From contig CAZPWM010000074.1 of the NCBI GenBank assembly GCA_964590575.1, forward strand, positions 1-16,145: a DNA stretch of 16,145 nucleotides, read 5' to 3'. Position 1 is the stretch's first letter; every line of letters begins with the position of its first letter. The stretch comes from an uncultured archaeon (GTDB lineage Archaea > Asgardarchaeota > Thorarchaeia > Thorarchaeales > Thorarchaeaceae). Under the pieces are notes generated by a model. That model worked only from the letters and a program-made list of their open reading frames with translations. It had not been told where the DNA came from and did not search any database. Positions 1,144 to 12,907 of this stretch are shown piece after piece. The position numbers and the translations under genes were made by a program.

Positions 1144-2655
1144 TTATCCAAAAAGTGCTGAATATTTTGTATCCAAGTATTCGATGAACGGGTCTGCTGT
1201 TAATGACTTGCCAGTAATCTCTATAATCATTTCTGATGGGTCAAGTAAATTCGACTTTCTATGGACATTCTCAACAAGCCATTGAACTGGAATTGAGATG
1301 TTTCCCTCAGCAACATGCGTTTTCCACTCGGGAATATCAGCAGTCATTTTTTCCCGTATCATTGCAGCATAGAGATTTCCTAGAGTATATGTGGGAAAAT
1401 ACCCCCAGTATGCCCATGCCCAATGTACATCCTGAAGAGCTCCTTCAGTGTCTGTTTCTATATCCACTCCAAGATATCGCCTATACTTTTCATTCCAGAT
1501 TTCTGGAATATCTGAGACATCAATTTTACCATCAAACAAATCCTTCTCAATCTCAAATCGGATAATGATATGGAGGGCGTAAGTCATTTCATCCGCTAGT
1601 ACCCGAATCTTCGATGGTTCTACGAGATTAATCGCTTGGAGTAACTCCTGCTGAGATATGTCTTTGAATATTCCATTTGTGTGTTCAATAAAACGCGGAT
1701 AATAAAACTCCCAGAACTCTGGAGACCTCCCAATTATATTCTCCACAAATCTGCTTTGTGATTCACTGATACCGGAACCACAGCTTTTTCCAAGTTTCAT
1801 CCATTTCCATTCTGGATTTTGATTTTGATTGTGGATAGCATGTCCTGTTTCGTGTAGCCCTCCAAACATAGCTCTGAAAACATCATCCTCTGAATATTGG
1901 ATTGTGAACCTGACATCATCATAATATCCTGTTGTGAACGGATGCTCCGATTCGTCAATCCGGCCTCCGGCATTTTCAGAAGTTGTATCATAACCCATGA
2001 CTCTTGCCAAATCTGTTACTATTTTTCTTTGAATACTAGTAGGAACTTTGCGCTTCTTGAAATCAGTACGCACATTTTCACATATTGCACCATACTTCTT
2101 GACAAGGGGTATCAAACGCTTTCTTAAATCGAGAAAAACTTCGGAAATAGACTCTGTGGTCATTCTGGGCTCCCAATCATCCATAAACGCATCCAACTGA
2201 CATTTCGCTCCAATACCCTCCTTTATTTTCTCTGCAACATTCTTAGAGATATCAAGTAGTGTTATCAATTCAGATTCGAAAAGTTTCCAATTGTTGGTTT
2301 CTTTTGCTCGTTTCCAAGCTGTAGTAGCCACCGTTTGTTATATCGAATATATAGAATCGAGATCCTCAGGAATTTTCGAGAATTGGTCCAATTCTCTTCT
2401 GGTTAACTCAACTTCTCTTCTCTGAACTATATCTAAATTGTCACTTTCTTTCTCGAGTTTGGAAACAAGTCGTTCTAGTTTCTCATCTGTGACCATACGG
2501 TGATACAACTTGCTCATAAGTGCTAATTGCTCAGAACGCTGTTTGATCCCCTTTGGAGGTATATGCGTATAGAGATCCCATTGAATGATTCCACGCCCTG
2601 TCTGGAATTGAATCATTTCCTTTGTAATCTCCAACAGTCTTTCGTAAGACTCCAT
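1144..2655 (-). pseudogene. M32 (Taq-type) metallocarboxypeptidase paralog interrupted by one in-frame TAA at 2338-2340
   Basis: Track ORFs 2338..2739 and 1144..2331 are in the same frame: ...GAG GAT CTC GAT TCT ATA TAT TCG ATA TAA CAA ACG GTG GCT... Joined from ATG 2655 (GGGAG ~10 nt upstream) they give 503 codons colinear with 5040..6563. Motifs HPF, DVRFT, HETGH, IRVLAD, GALQDVHW and YFPTY are present. Confidence 0.85.
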
Positions 2656-2800
2656 GAAATTATACTCCCGAGCTCTGATGCTCTTACATCCCATTAGTTG
2701 GACGTCATGGATAGTAATGACTGTTGTGGAACTTCCCATGCCACTTCAATAAGGCCATAAGGATGATATCAACAAAAATGGAAACTGAGGTCTCGTTTCA

Positions 2801-5039: not shown

Positions 5040-6563
5040 TTAGAAACCAAATAGCGTCGAGTACTTGTTTTCTACATATCTAAGGAACGGATCAGCAGTA
5101 AGTTTCGTCCCAGTCACCTTTTCCATTAAATCAGCTGGGTCATACATTGCTGACTGAATGTGTACTTTCTCTTTCATCCAATTAACAATGGGTATAATCT
5201 CTCCATTAGCAATTCTGCTCAACCAATCAGGCATATCTTTTTGCATCTTGTCGAGCAACATCCCATCGTAGATATTGCCTAGTGCGTAGCTGGGGAAATA
5301 ACCAAAGTATCCACTAGCCCAGTGTGTATCTTGTAGGACACCATTGGCATCGTCAGGGACATCAATTCCAAGATATTCGCTGTATCTCTCATTCCACACC
5401 TGTGGCAATTCGGACACAGTAATCTTGTCTGAGAATAGGTCTCGCTCTATCTCAAATCGAACGATTATGTGTAAAGAATATGTGACCTCATCAGCCTCTA
5501 TACGGATGAGGGAAGGCTTAACCAGATTCATAGCTTTGATGAATGTAGCGTCATCAACGCCTGGGAATGTACCCCCTGTGAACTCCTTCAGTTTGGGCAA
5601 ATAGAATTCGAGGAATTCTGGCGAGCGACCAATCATGTTCTCAATGAATCTAGATTGAGACTCATGGACTCCAAATGAAGCATTTGTACCAATTGGAGTG
5701 TATTTCCATTCAGGATTCAGATTTTGCTCATAGAGAGCATGACCAGCTTCATGGAGAATGGCATAGATAGCAGAGGACACATTGTCTTCATGATATTTGA
5801 CAGTGATTCTCACATCATCGTAATATCCTGTGGTGAATGGGTGTTCTACCTCGTCTATCCGACCTCCTGCTTGATCAGTTACTGTGTCATAACCAACCAT
5901 AGTTGCTAAGTCTGTGGCAATCTTTCTCTGAATATCAATAGACACTGTTTTACTCAGGAATGATGAATCGAAATCCTTGGAAGCATCTGCACATTTCTTG
6001 GTGAGAGGTACTAGTCTGTCCCGTAGTTCGCTGAAGACCTTGGTGATTTGCTTAGATGTAATTCCTCTCTCAAACTCATCAAGCATGCTATCATATAGGA
6101 TAGGAATACCCTTTACCTTCATCTCAATCTCTGCGCGTTCTCTCATCAAGTCAACTGTCTTCTGCAATTCAGGTTCAAATTTCTTCCAATCATTAGCCGC
6201 TTTCGCTTTCTTCCATGTTTCCAAACTAATCGGTTTTTGCTTTCCAATTCTAGCAACGAGGTCTTCTGGAATCTTGGTCTCCTTATCATATTCTCGACGC
6301 ACGATGAAGACATTTCGATTTTGGACTTTACTTAATGTCTTGGACTTCTCTTCTGATTTGGTAAGTAGTTTACCAATTTCAGGATCTGTACCCATTCTAT
6401 GCAGTATCTGTTGTAGAATTGCCATCTGTTCGCTACGTAAAATCAACCCTTTTGGAGGCATGTGCGTTTCATAATCCCATTGGACTACTCCTGCCACACT
6501 ACCAAGGAGAATATATTCTTTCATTCTGTTCATGAGATTGTCATACGCTTCCATATTTGACAC
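5040..6563 (-). CDS. M32 thermostable carboxypeptidase (Taq/PfuCP-type), intact
   Basis: HPF, DVRIT, HEAGH (HEXXH), HESQ, IRIEAD, GVLQDTHW and YFPSY motifs are all canonical. The true start may be ATG 6554 (GGGTG upstream). Confidence 0.95.
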   Translation of the reverse strand: MSNMEAYDNLMNRMKEYILLGSVAGVVQWDYETHMPPKGLILRSEQMAILQQILHRMGTDPEIGKLLTKSEEKSKTLSKVQNRNVFIVRREYDKETKIPEDLVARIGKQKPISLETWKKAKAANDWKKFEPELQKTVDLMRERAEIEMKVKGIPILYDSMLDEFERGITSKQITKVFSELRDRLVPLTKKCADASKDFDSSFLSKTVSIDIQRKIATDLATMVGYDTVTDQAGGRIDEVEHPFTTGYYDDVRITVKYHEDNVSSAIYAILHEAGHALYEQNLNPEWKYTPIGTNASFGVHESQSRFIENMIGRSPEFLEFYLPKLKEFTGGTFPGVDDATFIKAMNLVKPSLIRIEADEVTYSLHIIVRFEIERDLFSDKITVSELPQVWNERYSEYLGIDVPDDANGVLQDTHWASGYFGYFPSYALGNIYDGMLLDKMQKDMPDWLSRIANGEIIPIVNWMKEKVHIQSAMYDPADLMEKVTGTKLTADPFLRYVENKYSTLFGF

Positions 6564-7884: not shown

Positions 7885-7962
7885 CTTTCTTCACTAGAGA
7901 TTTTCTTATTTTATGGTTATCAGTTTATAGTAAGGACGCGCTTCGGTTGTGCATGTCAATTA

Positions 7963-8005
7963 CACAAACGTTTTAAGACAATACAACACAAAACGCACAA
8001 ACGTT
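7963..8005. promoter_or_regulatory. Direct-repeat putative regulator sites around the thioredoxin promoter
   Basis: CACAAACGTT at 7963-7972 and 7996-8005, plus CACAAAACG at 7987-7995. They flank a TTTTAA TATA-like box at 7971-7976. Confidence 0.4.
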
Positions 8006-8017
8006 AGAGGTGTTCCC

Positions 8018-8464
8018 GTGCTGAATGACGACGAACTGGAAGAGATCCGACGTAGAAAGATGCAGATTCTTATGGAACGAGCTCAACAACCCCAAATCTT
8101 GGAACCAATGGCAAATGGCCAAGTCAATTTATTGACTGATGCAAACTTTTGGATAACTATTCAGCAGACCAAATTAGCGTTCGTCGACTTTTTCGGAGAG
8201 TGGTGCAACCCTTGCAAGGCACTTGCTCCAATATTCACAGAATTGGCTCAAGACTATAAAGGGAAGGTGTACTTTGCTAAGATCGACATTGACCGAAACA
8301 GACGAGCTACATCTCAATTCGGTGTTCAATCAGTCCCTATGGTCATAGCCTTCAAAGATGGAAAACCCCTTGGGAAATTGCCAGGTCTCCGACCTTATGC
8401 TGACTACGATTCTATTCTTGAGCAGATGGTTGGTAAGGGCCCGGATGAAAGTAGCCACGTCTAG
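8018..8464 (+). CDS. trxA: Thioredoxin with archaeal N-terminal DDELEEIRRRK extension
   Basis: VDFFGEWCNPCK active site, FAKIDID, FGVQSVP cis-Pro loop. Start re-called to GTG 8018 (GAGGTG RBS just upstream) instead of 7949. Confidence 0.92.
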   Translation: MLNDDELEEIRRRKMQILMERAQQPQILEPMANGQVNLLTDANFWITIQQTKLAFVDFFGEWCNPCKALAPIFTELAQDYKGKVYFAKIDIDRNRRATSQFGVQSVPMVIAFKDGKPLGKLPGLRPYADYDSILEQMVGKGPDESSHV

Positions 8465-8474
8465 AATAGAGTGC

Positions 8475-8606
8475 GACCCGGAACAAGACCAAACGAGAAA
8501 TTTCCAACACGAGAATGGATGCACTGAATACGAGAAAGCTGTGGATTGTGAGCTTCAATGCGAGATTCCTATGCCTTATTCCGGGTCTGGGTTAGGATGC
8601 CTAACC
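8475..8606 (-). ncRNA. Candidate novel structured non-coding RNA with four UCUCG motifs
   Basis: Stems found by hand: 8590-8596/8600-8606 (7 bp perfect), 8475-8489/8573-8587 (15 bp), 8521-8528/8554-8561 (8 bp), 8538-8540/8551-8553 and 8503-8506/8516-8519. All three non-Watson-Crick positions are G-U pairs on the minus strand (A-C mismatches on plus). TATA-like CTTATATT at 8640-8633. Confidence 0.6.
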
Positions 8607-8632
8607 ACGTGAGAAAAACAGCATTAAGTTTG

Positions 8633-8651
8633 AATATAAGGTGTGGTTTCG
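8633..8651 (-). promoter_or_regulatory. Putative TATA box (with possible BRE) for the candidate ncRNA
   Basis: Minus strand reads CGAAACCACAC-CTTATATT, ending about 27 nt upstream of the 5' hairpin at 8606. Confidence 0.4.
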
Positions 8652-8745
8652 TAGCAGCAATATCCATTAGATTTATTTGGTCAAAAACTGGGCTTCGCGG
8701 TTATCATCCGTGATGTCCTTGACTCGTTCTATGAGAGAATTGATG

Positions 8746-9618
8746 TTATTTCAGACATGCATGTGATTTCAGATTGTTAATTTTACCATTAATCACGGCT
8801 ATGGGCATTGCCTTTGCGTTTATCGAATAACCATAATTTCCTTCATTGTCCACCACTATGATGCCAGCCTCACTACCAGTCTTTTCCTCGAACATGTCCA
8901 TTCCCTTCTTTGCAGCAGACATGACATCAAGCCCCTCTTCAACATAGAGCGCTGTCATTCTACTTAATAGAACACGCATAATGTGTTCACCCCAACCTGT
9001 TGCTGAAGCTCCGCACACATCATTCGCATATGCCCCAGCTCCCATGATAGGAGAATCTCCTACTCTCCCAGGTAGTTTCTTCTGGATTCCCCCTGTAGAT
9101 GAGGTTGCAGCTATATTACCATCAGTATCTACAACCAGGCAGCCTACCGTGTCGCCAGCAGGAGAGATGTTGGGCATCTCAATCACTCCACATTCGACTT
9201 CTTGACGATACCCTTCCTCAATCATCTTTTCATAGACTCTCTTTGCGTTTTCACCAGCAAAGAAATTATAATCCGTCTTCTCCATGATATATCGAGCTAA
9301 TGAAATTGGATTATGAATTCCAATTATTGCTCCAACTGAACCGAACTGAAGATTCTTCCCGTCAACAATCATTGCATCTAGTTCACGGAGACCATCTTGA
9401 TTAACGGTTGCCCCTTTACCGGCATTTAGATTTCCGCAGCTCTCCATGAAAAGTGTACATGCCTCAGCAGCATCTAGTACTGACCCTCCATCCGTGAGGA
9501 CCTTAAAGCCTGCATTTGCAGCCTTTTCAACATGTTCGATTCCTATAGGGATTCTCTCATCTTTCCAAGAACCTGCTCCACCATGGACAATTATCATTGG
9601 AAGTTTCATATTCATCAC
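8746..9618 (-). CDS. iaaA: Isoaspartyl peptidase / plant-type L-asparaginase (Ntn hydrolase)
   Basis: IIVHGGAG, LDAMIVDG, autocleavage site GD|TVG, TSSTGG, GRVGDSP, SATGWGE. The start may be ATG 9615 or 9609. Confidence 0.93.
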   Translation of the reverse strand: MMNMKLPMIIVHGGAGSWKDERIPIGIEHVEKAANAGFKVLTDGGSVLDAAEACTLFMESCGNLNAGKGATVNQDGLRELDAMIVDGKNLQFGSVGAIIGIHNPISLARYIMEKTDYNFFAGENAKRVYEKMIEEGYRQEVECGVIEMPNISPAGDTVGCLVVDTDGNIAATSSTGGIQKKLPGRVGDSPIMGAGAYANDVCGASATGWGEHIMRVLLSRMTALYVEEGLDVMSAAKKGMDMFEEKTGSEAGIIVVDNEGNYGYSINAKAMPIAVINGKINNLKSHACLK

Positions 9619-9678: not shown

Positions 9679-10161
9679 TTAGAAATCAAATCCAAGTCCT
9701 GATTCTATTCGCCCACCGTACAAGCTGTCCTTCAGACCTTGATATTCATGCGCGGACATTCCAATCTCGCCTGTAGCGACTACTCGAACACGTATTGGCA
9801 TTTCATGACTGAACGTTATATTATATTCTGCCTTCTTTGGATTCAGACAGAAAAAGTATACTGCAACCACCTCGACAATAATCACCAATGCAATATATGC
9901 AAAAATCCCGAATAGAAACGCATAGGGAGATGCCAACACGAACATGAACAGTACGGGTATACCAAGTAGCAAAGCAATGCAAGGATAGAAGCAGAGCTTC
10001 ATGTCATGTTTCGTTTTAGTCAAAATGATATGATGTTCTGATTTTACTTCCATTATGTAATCCTTTCCAAGATATGAAGCATTCCAAGATTTCACCCTAT
10101 ATTTGACATCTGCCATAGTATAATTGTCAGGAACCGTGAATTCGTCATTAAATACGGACAT
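9679..10161 (-). CDS. Hypothetical 2-TM membrane protein (paralog of 10220..10741)
   Basis: Start re-called to ATG 10161 (AGGTGG RBS), which removes the overlap with the upstream gene. Shares TVPDNYTM, RVKSW, ILTKxKHDMK and FFCLxPxKA with its neighbour. Confidence 0.8.
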   Translation of the reverse strand: MSVFNDEFTVPDNYTMADVKYRVKSWNASYLGKDYIMEVKSEHHIILTKTKHDMKLCFYPCIALLLGIPVLFMFVLASPYAFLFGIFAYIALVIIVEVVAVYFFCLNPKKAEYNITFSHEMPIRVRVVATGEIGMSAHEYQGLKDSLYGGRIESGLGFDF

Positions 10162-10219
10162 GTTTTTCCACCTACTTCCGTTCTTGTTTACACATTCATT
10201 TAACCAATTTGAATCACTG

Positions 10220-10741
10220 TTAGTAATTGAGAGCTGGACCTCCGAATGGATCAGCTCCACCAAGGATAGCAGATTTGAGTGATTCGTATTCATACGCTGA
10301 CTTTTTCAGCTCTCCTGATCTATGAATTTGAATTTTAATTGGTAATTCATTTCCGAATCTCATTTCGAAGACTGCTTTTTGGGGTTTTAGACAGAAAAAT
10401 GCGACAGTAATCGCCATAATTACACCAATAACGGCGACATAGCCTGCCATTGCATTCAACAATGCTTCATAACTATAGGTTGGCTGAGTTATAAGAAAAG
10501 GTATCATCAGAAAAACACTCAGAAACATACCGACACATCCATAGCAACAAATCTTCATGTCGTGTTTCGCTTTCGTAAGAATGACGTGTTTCTCTGAAAC
10601 AACCTCCATCACATATTCCTGTCCTGAAGGAGTAACAAGCCATGACTTCACTCTTTTTTTGATATCTTCCATTGTATAATTATCAGGAACGGTGATTTCG
10701 TCGTCAGATGGAAGTATATTCGACCCCTCAAATTCGTACAT
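10220..10741 (-). CDS. Hypothetical 2-TM membrane protein (paralog of 9679..10161)
   Basis: GAGGTG RBS. Full-length similarity to the downstream gene. Confidence 0.82.
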   Translation of the reverse strand: MYEFEGSNILPSDDEITVPDNYTMEDIKKRVKSWLVTPSGQEYVMEVVSEKHVILTKAKHDMKICCYGCVGMFLSVFLMIPFLITQPTYSYEALLNAMAGYVAVIGVIMAITVAFFCLKPQKAVFEMRFGNELPIKIQIHRSGELKKSAYEYESLKSAILGGADPFGGPALNY

Positions 10742-11458: not shown

Positions 11459-12907
11459 TTGTATTCAAATCACCAAATGATTACCCTTCGTTACCTCTCT
11501 CGAGATGACCTTGATTCCATTCATCATGCTACATTGGAAATACTAGAAAATACCGGAGTTGCAATAAAGAATGAGCATGCCCGGGATTTGCTAGAAGATT
11601 CCGGGTGCACGGTAGAAGACAGACATGTAAAAATTCCTTCCTCACTAGTGAAGGAATCCATTAGCAAAGCTCCATCGTCATTCAATCTCTACTCTCGTGA
11701 AGGGGACAAATCTTACTCTATCGGATCTGATAACATAGTCTTCAATCCTGGATCATCAGCTGTTTATTTCAAGGACAGAAAAACAAGAGAGATTCGCAAG
11801 GGAACTTTGAATGATTGTATTGAACTCGCCAAGGTTGTCGAGGATCTCGAACATATCAAAGCTCAGAGTACTGCACTAGTGCCTTCTGATGTGCTTGACA
11901 ACCTTTCAGGGCTGTATAGACTCTACATCATCTTGAAACATTCATCAAAACCGATTATCACAGGAGCGTTCAGGAAAGAGGATGTAGTGAACATGAAACT
12001 ACTGCTTGAAGCTTCGGTAGGAGGTTCTGAGGAACTCGCTCAAAAACCTCGAGCAATTTTTGACTGTTGTCCGACATCACCTCTTTCGTGGGACGACACT
12101 GCTTCTCAACATTTGATGGATTGTTGTACGTATGGTATTCCTGCAGCAATAGTACCCGCACCATTGATAGGAGCTACAAGTCCAATTACAATCCAAGGCA
12201 CACTAGTCCAAACTAACGCAGAAATCCTGAGTGGAGTAGTCATATCCCAACTGACGAATTCCAGGTTTCCTATTGTTTATGGAGGTGCACCCGGGTCATT
12301 TGACATGAAATATGGTACTCCGAGATTTAGCGCAGTCGAGGCGATGCTCACAGCTTGTGCTTCAACTGAAATCGGAAAGCATTATGGGTTACCTACTCAA
12401 TCATACTTGGGAACAAGTGATGCCAAGGTTGAGGATTCGCAAAGTGGCTTTGAATCTGGTTCGGGTTTGATCTTCGGAGCACTATCAAAAATCAATATCA
12501 TTTCAGGTCCAGGTATGCTTGCACAACTAAACTGCCAATCTTTAGAAAAACTTGTTATTGATAACGAATTGTGCGGTTCAGCCTATAGATTCTCAAGAGG
12601 TATTGATTTTGAGGATATTGATGTATTTACAGAATTGATTTCAAAGGTAGGCTCAAGTGGGCAATACCTGAACCAAAAACATACCTCAAAGAAATTGAGA
12701 TCTGAACATTTCATGCCTTCAGATGTCATATGCAGACTGACTGCAGGCTCTTGGATGGAGTGTGGTTCAAAGAACACCTTTGATAGGGCTCGTGAGAAAG
12801 TGAATGTAATACTACAAGACCATACTCATGAGGATCCAGAGCAAATCGAAGAATTGGATCAAACCTTCGATGAGATCAAGAAGAAATACAATTCTTCTGG
12901 AAATTAA
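11459..12907 (+). CDS. Trimethylamine methyltransferase (MttB) superfamily corrinoid methyltransferase, non-pyrrolysine type
   Basis: IHHATLEILENTGV, PTSPL, GATSPITIQGTLVQTNAEILSG, SDAKVEDSQSGFES, SLEKLVIDNE. No in-frame TAG; the residue before SDAK (the Pyl site in methanogen MttB) is Thr. Confidence 0.93.
   Translation: MYSNHQMITLRYLSRDDLDSIHHATLEILENTGVAIKNEHARDLLEDSGCTVEDRHVKIPSSLVKESISKAPSSFNLYSREGDKSYSIGSDNIVFNPGSSAVYFKDRKTREIRKGTLNDCIELAKVVEDLEHIKAQSTALVPSDVLDNLSGLYRLYIILKHSSKPIITGAFRKEDVVNMKLLLEASVGGSEELAQKPRAIFDCCPTSPLSWDDTASQHLMDCCTYGIPAAIVPAPLIGATSPITIQGTLVQTNAEILSGVVISQLTNSRFPIVYGGAPGSFDMKYGTPRFSAVEAMLTACASTEIGKHYGLPTQSYLGTSDAKVEDSQSGFESGSGLIFGALSKINIISGPGMLAQLNCQSLEKLVIDNELCGSAYRFSRGIDFEDIDVFTELISKVGSSGQYLNQKHTSKKLRSEHFMPSDVICRLTAGSWMECGSKNTFDRAREKVNVILQDHTHEDPEQIEELDQTFDEIKKKYNSSGN

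Follow-up and report, generated by a model that had tools for sequence, protein, structure and literature searches.

A candidate stand-alone structured RNA gene of one Thorarchaeota genus, with a near-invariant arm that may dock a protein

Our analysis identifies what is very probably a real, stand-alone structured RNA gene in an uncultured archaeon of the Thorarchaeaceae. In our leading, still tentative reading, it is a single-copy, independently transcribed non-coding RNA gene of about 140-165 nt, belonging to one Thorarchaeota genus and acting through one of its arms, P4, as a dock for protein. The gene lies on a stretch of DNA of 16,145 nucleotides, referred to here as the window, within the 281-nt gap between a thioredoxin gene on the plus strand (7949-8464; Pfam Thioredoxin, E 6e-24) and an Asparaginase_2 gene on the minus strand (8746-9618; Pfam E 4e-72). 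The RNA is read from the minus strand, so that the thioredoxin gene is convergent with it and the asparaginase gene lies upstream on the same strand. The whole predicted RNA, of approximately 140 nt, extends over positions 8469-8608 and matches two covariance models over its full length, with 149.4 bits for R1 and 148.8 bits for R2; window coordinate 8609-p corresponds to RNA position p. Its predicted ends, 8608 and 8469, were placed from the promoter spacing and from a T-rich tail.

The fold distinguishes the two strands. RNAfold assigned the minus strand an energy of -47.4 kcal/mol (z -4.19), with none of 200 shuffles equally stable, and the plus strand -36.7 kcal/mol (z -1.18), with 30 of 200 shuffles equally stable. 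This asymmetry arises because the long stems contain three non-Watson-Crick pairs, all of them G-U on the minus strand, which turn into A-C on the plus strand. An initial annotation, made from the letters of the window, had proposed a minus-strand RNA at this location and had read the three imperfect pairs as G-U wobbles; its sequence and coordinates proved accurate, the wobbles are present as described, and the z-scores fix the strand that it had chosen.

The overall architecture consists of a 5' hairpin (P1), a long closing stem (P2), a short helix (P3) and a three-way junction with two arms, P4 and P5, all on the minus strand. P1 is the 7-bp hairpin GGUUAGG-CAU-CCUAACC (8590-8606), and P2 is a 15-bp stem whose 5' strand occupies 8573-8587 and whose 3' strand occupies 8475-8489, as given by RNAfold and, for P2, also by compensatory changes. 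RNAfold recovered the 7-bp hairpin and the 15-bp stem enclosing two arms that the initial annotation had drawn. To that drawing we add P3, in which AGGAAU (8565-8570) pairs with AUUUCU (8496-8501); this helix is found in the MFE fold, closes the junction and covaries in relatives. The P4 arm (8521-8561) comprises 7 + 4 bp, an apical loop CACAAUCCAC at 8541-8550 and a 9-nt bulge on the 3' side, UUCUCGUAU, at 8528-8536. P5 (8503-8519) is the variable arm and is represented here by a weak 4-bp hairpin, UCCA-UUCUCGUGU-UGGA.

Comparison with relatives indicates that this structure is maintained by compensatory change. In a structure-blind MAFFT alignment of 15 sequences, the 34-pair structure was paired in 94.6% of cells, and 7 pairs carried double changes; the covariation score was 0.170 against 0.097 in shuffles, a value that 0 of 500 shuffles reached, and slid registers, used as a control, paired in at most 50% of cells. 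When the set was extended to 31 distinct sequences, with pairs counted on an alignment fitted to the covariance model, double changes were observed in 14 of the 34 pairs, and again none of 500 shuffles reached the covariation score. An independent prediction by RNAalifold also arrives at P1, P2 and P4, with compensation in 8 of its 31 pairs.

The individual helices differ in how they vary across these 31 sequences. Compensatory double changes affect 7 of the 12 modelled pairs of P2 and 4 of the 5 pairs of P3, the latter being paired in 77.6% of cells, with a first pair that may be G-U, C-G, G-C or U-A. P1 is paired in 97.8% of cells and has one pair that changes from G-C to U-A; its loop varies freely, with 21 variants, and is a GNRA-like or other tetraloop in 10 of the 31. 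P5 forms a hairpin in 30 of the 31 sequences, among which at least five unrelated stem/loop sequences occur, and its stability ranges from -2.9 kcal/mol here to as low as -14.1 kcal/mol in relatives. A coding role was ruled out, since every reading frame is interrupted in all but at most 5 of the 31 sequences, and the core carries 1- and 2-nt indels. We also discarded a pseudoknot in which the P4 loop would pair with the 5' end: among the first 15 sequences, G or A at RNA position 1 went together with C or U where the P4 loop ends, and members L067 and L068 break this association.

The RNA is preceded by a predicted promoter of its own. The block GCTACGAAACCACACCTTATATTCA (8631-8655, minus strand) combines a BRE-like GAAAC with a TATA-like TTATATT (8633-8639), which ends 27 nt ahead of the first G of the hairpin, as the initial annotation had noticed for the TATA-like box, and an archaeal BRE/TATA arrangement recurs in 29 of the 31 distinct copies. 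In these 29, the TATA-like heptamer starts 28-32 nt upstream of the model start; the two exceptions are L065, which has the variant TTTTATC, and L079, which lacks the heptamer. The aligned promoter consensus, GCTACGAAAC.AC.CCTT(A/T)TATTCA, retains both the BRE-like and the TATA-like element, and the block resembles the BRE/TATA found upstream of tRNA genes in the same genome. The spacer of about 22 nt between promoter and RNA is not conserved, being randomised among copies.

At the opposite end, a pyrimidine/T-rich tail, GCACUCUAUUCUA (8462-8474, minus strand), runs up to, or into, the stop codon of the thioredoxin gene that converges on it, and relatives carry T-rich runs after the closing stem, such as TCTTTCT, GTTTCT and TTTCTTTT; judged from its composition, this tail is likely the termination zone. 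Three generic attributes of an archaeal stand-alone ncRNA gene are found here: a BRE/TATA at a fixed distance in 29 of 31 copies, a covarying structure and no ORF.

The distribution of the gene is restricted to a single genus. No second copy was detected in the 3.4-Mb, 194-contig assembly by either blastn or the covariance model, and the RNA is carried by 21 of 27 other genomes of the genus, a count that includes one genome (G011) in which a contig end truncates the copy and only blastn detected it. By blastn, 17 of 24 genomes of the same genus and 0 of 16 genomes of other genera were positive. Model R1, applied across the class, matched 20 of 27 genomes of the genus and none of 59 elsewhere (16 other genera), and model R2, applied to a phylum-wide draw, matched 7 of 7 and none of 143 Asgard genomes elsewhere. 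A strict core pattern, searched in one genome each of 185,579 species, matched 18 contigs, of which 15 are titled Candidatus Thorarchaeota, 2 "Promethearchaeota archaeon" and 1 "uncultured archaeon." A looser pattern matched 18 metagenome contigs, every one a full-length member, and 0 viral contigs.

The thioredoxin orthologue is present in all 16 genera of the family. On the 3' side of thioredoxin at 28 loci, from other genera and from genome G012 of the genus, the model run with its filters off produced nothing better than a match of 11.1 bits (E 0.69). With a model restricted to P4, matches outside the genus were only marginal; the best of these (G094, 27.4 bits) falls within a 241-aa ORF without a promoter and was rejected, as was a weak P4-like match in the genome under study (C20, 17.6 bits, E 0.28), which is inside a 591-aa ORF.

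Within the genus, the gene can be lost. In G012, the RNA gene is gone and both neighbours are kept, with the stops of asparaginase and thioredoxin 22 nt apart; the spacer (L102 1476-1497) holds a remnant resembling the RNA 3' end, namely the 3' strand of P2 and the T-rich tail, which indicates that the gene was deleted there. The RNA was not found in five further genomes of the genus, and these same five also lack the thioredoxin orthologue (best E ~1e-13, compared with 1e-66 or better in carriers), a joint absence that may reflect a larger deletion or an assembly gap. The deletion in G012, together with the five non-carriers, implies that the RNA is not essential. The most divergent member, L064 1501-1652 (G017), scores 54.5 bits with R1; its P4 barely pairs and its loop is changed (AAAAUCAGAUU), and it may be a decaying copy.

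A genus-restricted element that has been lost in G012, and whose P5 is degenerate in this clade, might be regarded as a young or decaying sequence without function, for example the remnant of a mobile element or virus. However, the RNA is single-copy and occupies one syntenic site, viral contigs lack it, and no integrase or transposase was found near it in the loci examined. In addition, its promoter and P4 are under strong purifying selection next to a randomised spacer, and its helices are maintained through compensatory changes, so that we consider a functionless element highly improbable. A MITE or dispersed repeat, which the initial annotation had named as an alternative, was likewise rejected given one copy in the assembly and a syntenic site in relatives.

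The genomic neighbourhood provides further information on the independence of the gene. In relatives, the usual 3' neighbour of the RNA is the convergent thioredoxin gene, followed in most loci by an EamA transporter. Of the 19 loci examined, 13 have thioredoxin directly after the RNA, and in most of the rest it is no more than 2 kb away. An S26e ribosomal protein gene, on the RNA strand and about 110-185 nt downstream of the RNA, intervenes in G005 and G011 (L009 1032-1313, minus; L016 193-522, plus); the other loci have no S26e gene there, and a TPR or NosD gene intervenes in two further genomes. Upstream, the neighbour is asparaginase in 9 loci and a NosD-like (NosD/beta-helix) gene in 6, differing by species, and the RNA is consequently not the 3' UTR of a single gene. 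Read-through from the trxA 3' UTR, which the initial annotation had listed as a possible source of the transcript, was misassigned: trxA is on the other strand, and the upstream gene on the RNA strand is asparaginase.

This arrangement nevertheless calls for consideration of a role in cis, in which the RNA would serve as a structured terminator or as an insulator separating the convergent genes, or would act in antisense on the 3' end of the thioredoxin mRNA. The RNA 3' end adjoins the thioredoxin stop codon, the two genes are adjacent or nearly so at most loci, and the thioredoxin orthologue is also missing in 5 of the 6 RNA-negative genomes of the genus. Against this, S26e separates the two genes in two genomes and TPR or NosD in two others, all 15 other genera sampled, as well as G012, have the orthologue but not the RNA, and a terminator needs neither a dedicated conserved promoter nor an invariant internal arm. 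A cis element is, in our assessment, improbable.

Contigs of several assemblies end inside the RNA gene, as observed at the end of G002:C70 (L013) and at the starts of G002:C16 (L025), G020:C402 (L014) and G011:C182 (L016). In G002, two contigs share about 75 nt inside the gene, with NosD flanking one side and thioredoxin the other, and the breaks probably reflect strain variation of the upstream neighbour. An attB or other integration site, suggested by these contig ends in G002, G020 and G011 and by the differing 3' flanks, was dismissed, as the flanks carry thioredoxin, EamA, S26e, TPR or NosD and no integrase.

Several other features of the window and of the genome were recorded. A second M32 (carboxypeptidase Taq) gene at 1144-2739 (minus strand) is divided into two ORFs by one in-frame TAA (2338-2340), and a paralogue without interruption is located at 5040-6563. 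Two tandem, overlapping paralogous ORFs of 204 and 173 aa at 9679-10741 (minus strand) have similar N-terminal motifs and hydrophobic segments, and neither has a Pfam match. The ORF of the MttB family (trimethylamine methyltransferase) at 11459-12907 (plus strand) has no internal stop and would therefore be a family member without pyrrolysine. In the same genome, ARAGORN calls a tRNA-SeC at G000:C120:2154-2244 (plus strand), from which the organism probably uses selenocysteine.

The most striking feature of the single sequence, the recurrence of UCUCG, did not prove to be a property of the family. The motif was correctly located by the initial annotation, as CGAGA on the plus strand at 8494, 8510, 8531 and 8561, and had been interpreted as the basis of a multivalent sponge, which would titrate an RNA-binding protein following the logic of CsrB/RsmY or pair with CGAGA targets. 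In this genome, the four copies are unpaired, three of them read UUCUCGU, and such recurrence is rare in dinucleotide shuffles, where a 5-mer recurs at least four times in 81 of 5000 and a 7-mer at least three times in 13 of 5000; the closest relatives retain 2-3 copies. Among the 31 distinct members, however, the motif is present four times in 2, three times in 4, twice in 8, once in 15 and not at all in 2.

The position of each copy is also informative. The first instance is kept in 5-6 of the 31 and is otherwise mostly UCGCG or CCAG; the second, in the P4 bulge, is kept in 25 and is the sole conserved copy; the third occurs only in 12, those with a short P5; and the fourth occurs in 2. Three of the four sites fall within segments that covary as helices or are replaced outright, and the arm whose loop carries the P5 copy gives way in other species to hairpins of unrelated sequence. 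Nor is there any enrichment of CGAGA in the window as a whole, where 31 matches compare with an expectation of 26.4. Relatives thus uphold one part of the conservation that the initial annotation had set as its test, the covarying stems, and fail to uphold the other, the number of UCUCG motifs, and the sponge is largely refuted and hardly tenable as an explanation. By the sequences compared, four-copy presentation is a trait of this genome and of a near-identical metagenome copy rather than of the family, and the case illustrates how a repeat that stands out in one sequence may be no more than lineage noise.

The likeness to the bacterial CsrB, RsmY and RsmZ RNAs is limited accordingly to the recurrence of a short motif, four times and unpaired, in one genome. 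The many conserved motif copies of those RNAs are missing here, where 15 of the 31 members have a single copy, and the motif is UCUCG rather than GGA. To our knowledge, no CsrA-type partner is known in archaea.

Other known RNA classes do not account for the gene either, in agreement with the description of the RNA as an unrecognised family. Rfam 15 (4227 models) gave no match at gathering score in the window; with E up to 10 over 8380-8780, the only match was SNORA50 (E 4), which lies outside the RNA on the opposite strand and which we attribute to chance, and in 8 other family members nothing was found on the RNA with E up to 5. The initial annotation had set aside tRNA, SRP, RNase P, 5S and C/D box identities from the letters, and each of these was tested here with the same outcome. 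ARAGORN finds no tRNA gene in the window and 16 elsewhere in the genome. The genome's SRP RNA is on C124, at full length (83 bits, E 6.5e-19, below the Rfam gathering score), and its true 5S rRNA is on C112 (55.9 bits). RNase P RNA is missing from this assembly and is present in 24 of the 27 genomes of the genus, mostly carriers of the RNA described here, which argues against a replacement of RNase P RNA. RUGAUGA and CUGA boxes occur together in none of the 31 sequences, as would be needed for a C/D box sRNA, and an ACA no more than 6 nt after P2, as in an H/ACA guide RNA, is found in only 3 of 30.

Some structural resemblances deserve mention. Like 5S rRNA, the RNA is of about 120 nt in scale and has a closing helix that leads into a three-way junction bearing two arms, but it has no match to the 5S model at E up to 10. 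Like the Y RNAs of the Ro60 RNP, of about 100-150 nt, it has a long, partly conserved 5'/3' stem that closes a multi-branched interior; in contrast to them, it carries an extra 5' hairpin outside the closing stem and has no Rfam Y RNA match. A Y RNA/Ro60 identity was rejected because the TROVE domain (PF05731) has 0 matches in the genome, which is 91% complete, while controls match in 2 genomes. As a curiosity, the 3' strand of P1 and its linker read CUAACCC in 20 of the 31 members, and CUAACCC is the core of the vertebrate telomerase template. A template function was excluded, given that this segment is base-paired and that the genome has no RVT_1 reverse transcriptase or TTAGGG-type arrays.

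The element that the family conserves most closely is P4. This arm of 44 nt is near-invariant, with its 7 + 4 bp, a loop of 10-12 nt (CACAAUCCAC(UU)) and the 9-nt bulge UUCUCGUAU; across 17 distinct variants, it has 25 invariant columns and a mean column identity of 85%. The loop is invariant in 16 of the 17 variants, and one pair of the arm changes from G-C to A-U in 5 of the 31 sequences. Hardly any sequence change is seen at the base-paired positions in P4, in P1 and in the outer 7 bp of P2 (GACCCGG/CCGGGUC), whereas P2b, P3 and P5 of the same genomes have drifted with covariation. Since covariation would be enough to preserve a helix, the constancy of these sequences suggests that the helices themselves are recognised.

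On this basis, we propose that P4 may be a sequence-specific docking site for a protein. P2, P3 and P5 would stabilise the molecule as its scaffold, and P1 would cap the 5' end and protect it from decay; the whole could serve as the RNA component of an RNP specific to this lineage, or it could regulate a protein. Tertiary contacts, ligand binding or catalysis would account for the invariance of P4 equally well. The genus-only range offers no deep conservation that would support a core cellular role.

The main rival of the protein-dock reading is a trans-acting base-pairing sRNA, in which the P4 loop, the bulge or both would serve as seeds for mRNAs and the remainder as scaffold. Small size, an own promoter, restriction to a genus and a conserved single-stranded loop, here of 10-12 nt, are in keeping with archaeal sRNAs, as is the near-complete invariance of the loop among the P4 variants. 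The closest parallels are RNAs such as sRNA154 of Methanosarcina mazei, which is reportedly lineage-specific, confined to one genus and about 100-150 nt long, with its own promoter and several stem-loops; our RNA is alike in being a stand-alone gene of this size class with its own promoter, several stem-loops and a one-genus range. It differs from that type in having no Rfam sequence or structure match and no target found, and in that the stems of its key arm, and not the loop alone, are invariant in sequence, which the seed model does not need.

Target searches, though crude, also weigh against pairing. Exact 9-12-nt complements of the loop or bulge occur in the genome at chance frequency, and the sole 12-mer match (C23) is on the wrong strand of its gene, that is, sense-identical to the mRNA. 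By counts of longest complements, complementarity to the assembled parts of 16S, to SRP RNA and to 5S rRNA does not exceed that of shuffles. An ORF for a Glu/Leu dehydrogenase (G000:C137:4496-4516, minus strand) contains perfect complements of 11 and 8 nt, 2 nt apart, to two unpaired parts of the RNA. We treated this site as chance: the gene is found in 3 of 27 genomes of the genus, these 3 do not keep the site, and in G069 it is degraded with the RNA unchanged. We rank a protein-binding or RNP role for P4, itself only a possibility, above the base-pairing sRNA, which we regard as unlikely.

A ligand-binding or catalytic RNA, with a pocket formed by P4 and the junction, was also evaluated. A compact three-way junction whose unpaired nucleotides are invariant would suit such a molecule, but no riboswitch or ribozyme model matches at E up to 10, most genomes have no downstream gene to regulate, and no cleavage-site signature was recognised. 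This reading appears decidedly improbable.

Returning to protein recognition, a more specific and even more provisional version of it is that a newly born gene of the Asgard lineage encodes the RNA subunit of a genus-specific RNP, with the P4 loop and bulge as putative recognition module. In the openly available full-text literature, we found no small or structured RNA of this kind reported for Asgard archaea. If true, no lineage-specific structured RNA of an RNP would have been described in Asgard archaea before this one, and G012 would offer a natural deletion for comparison. The RNA also represents a clean case of a recently arisen structured RNA gene. As a well-supported RNA family not described before, in which a promoter and a covarying fold accompany an arm that stays invariant, it provides a handle for RNA-protein biochemistry in an uncultured lineage near the origin of eukaryotes.
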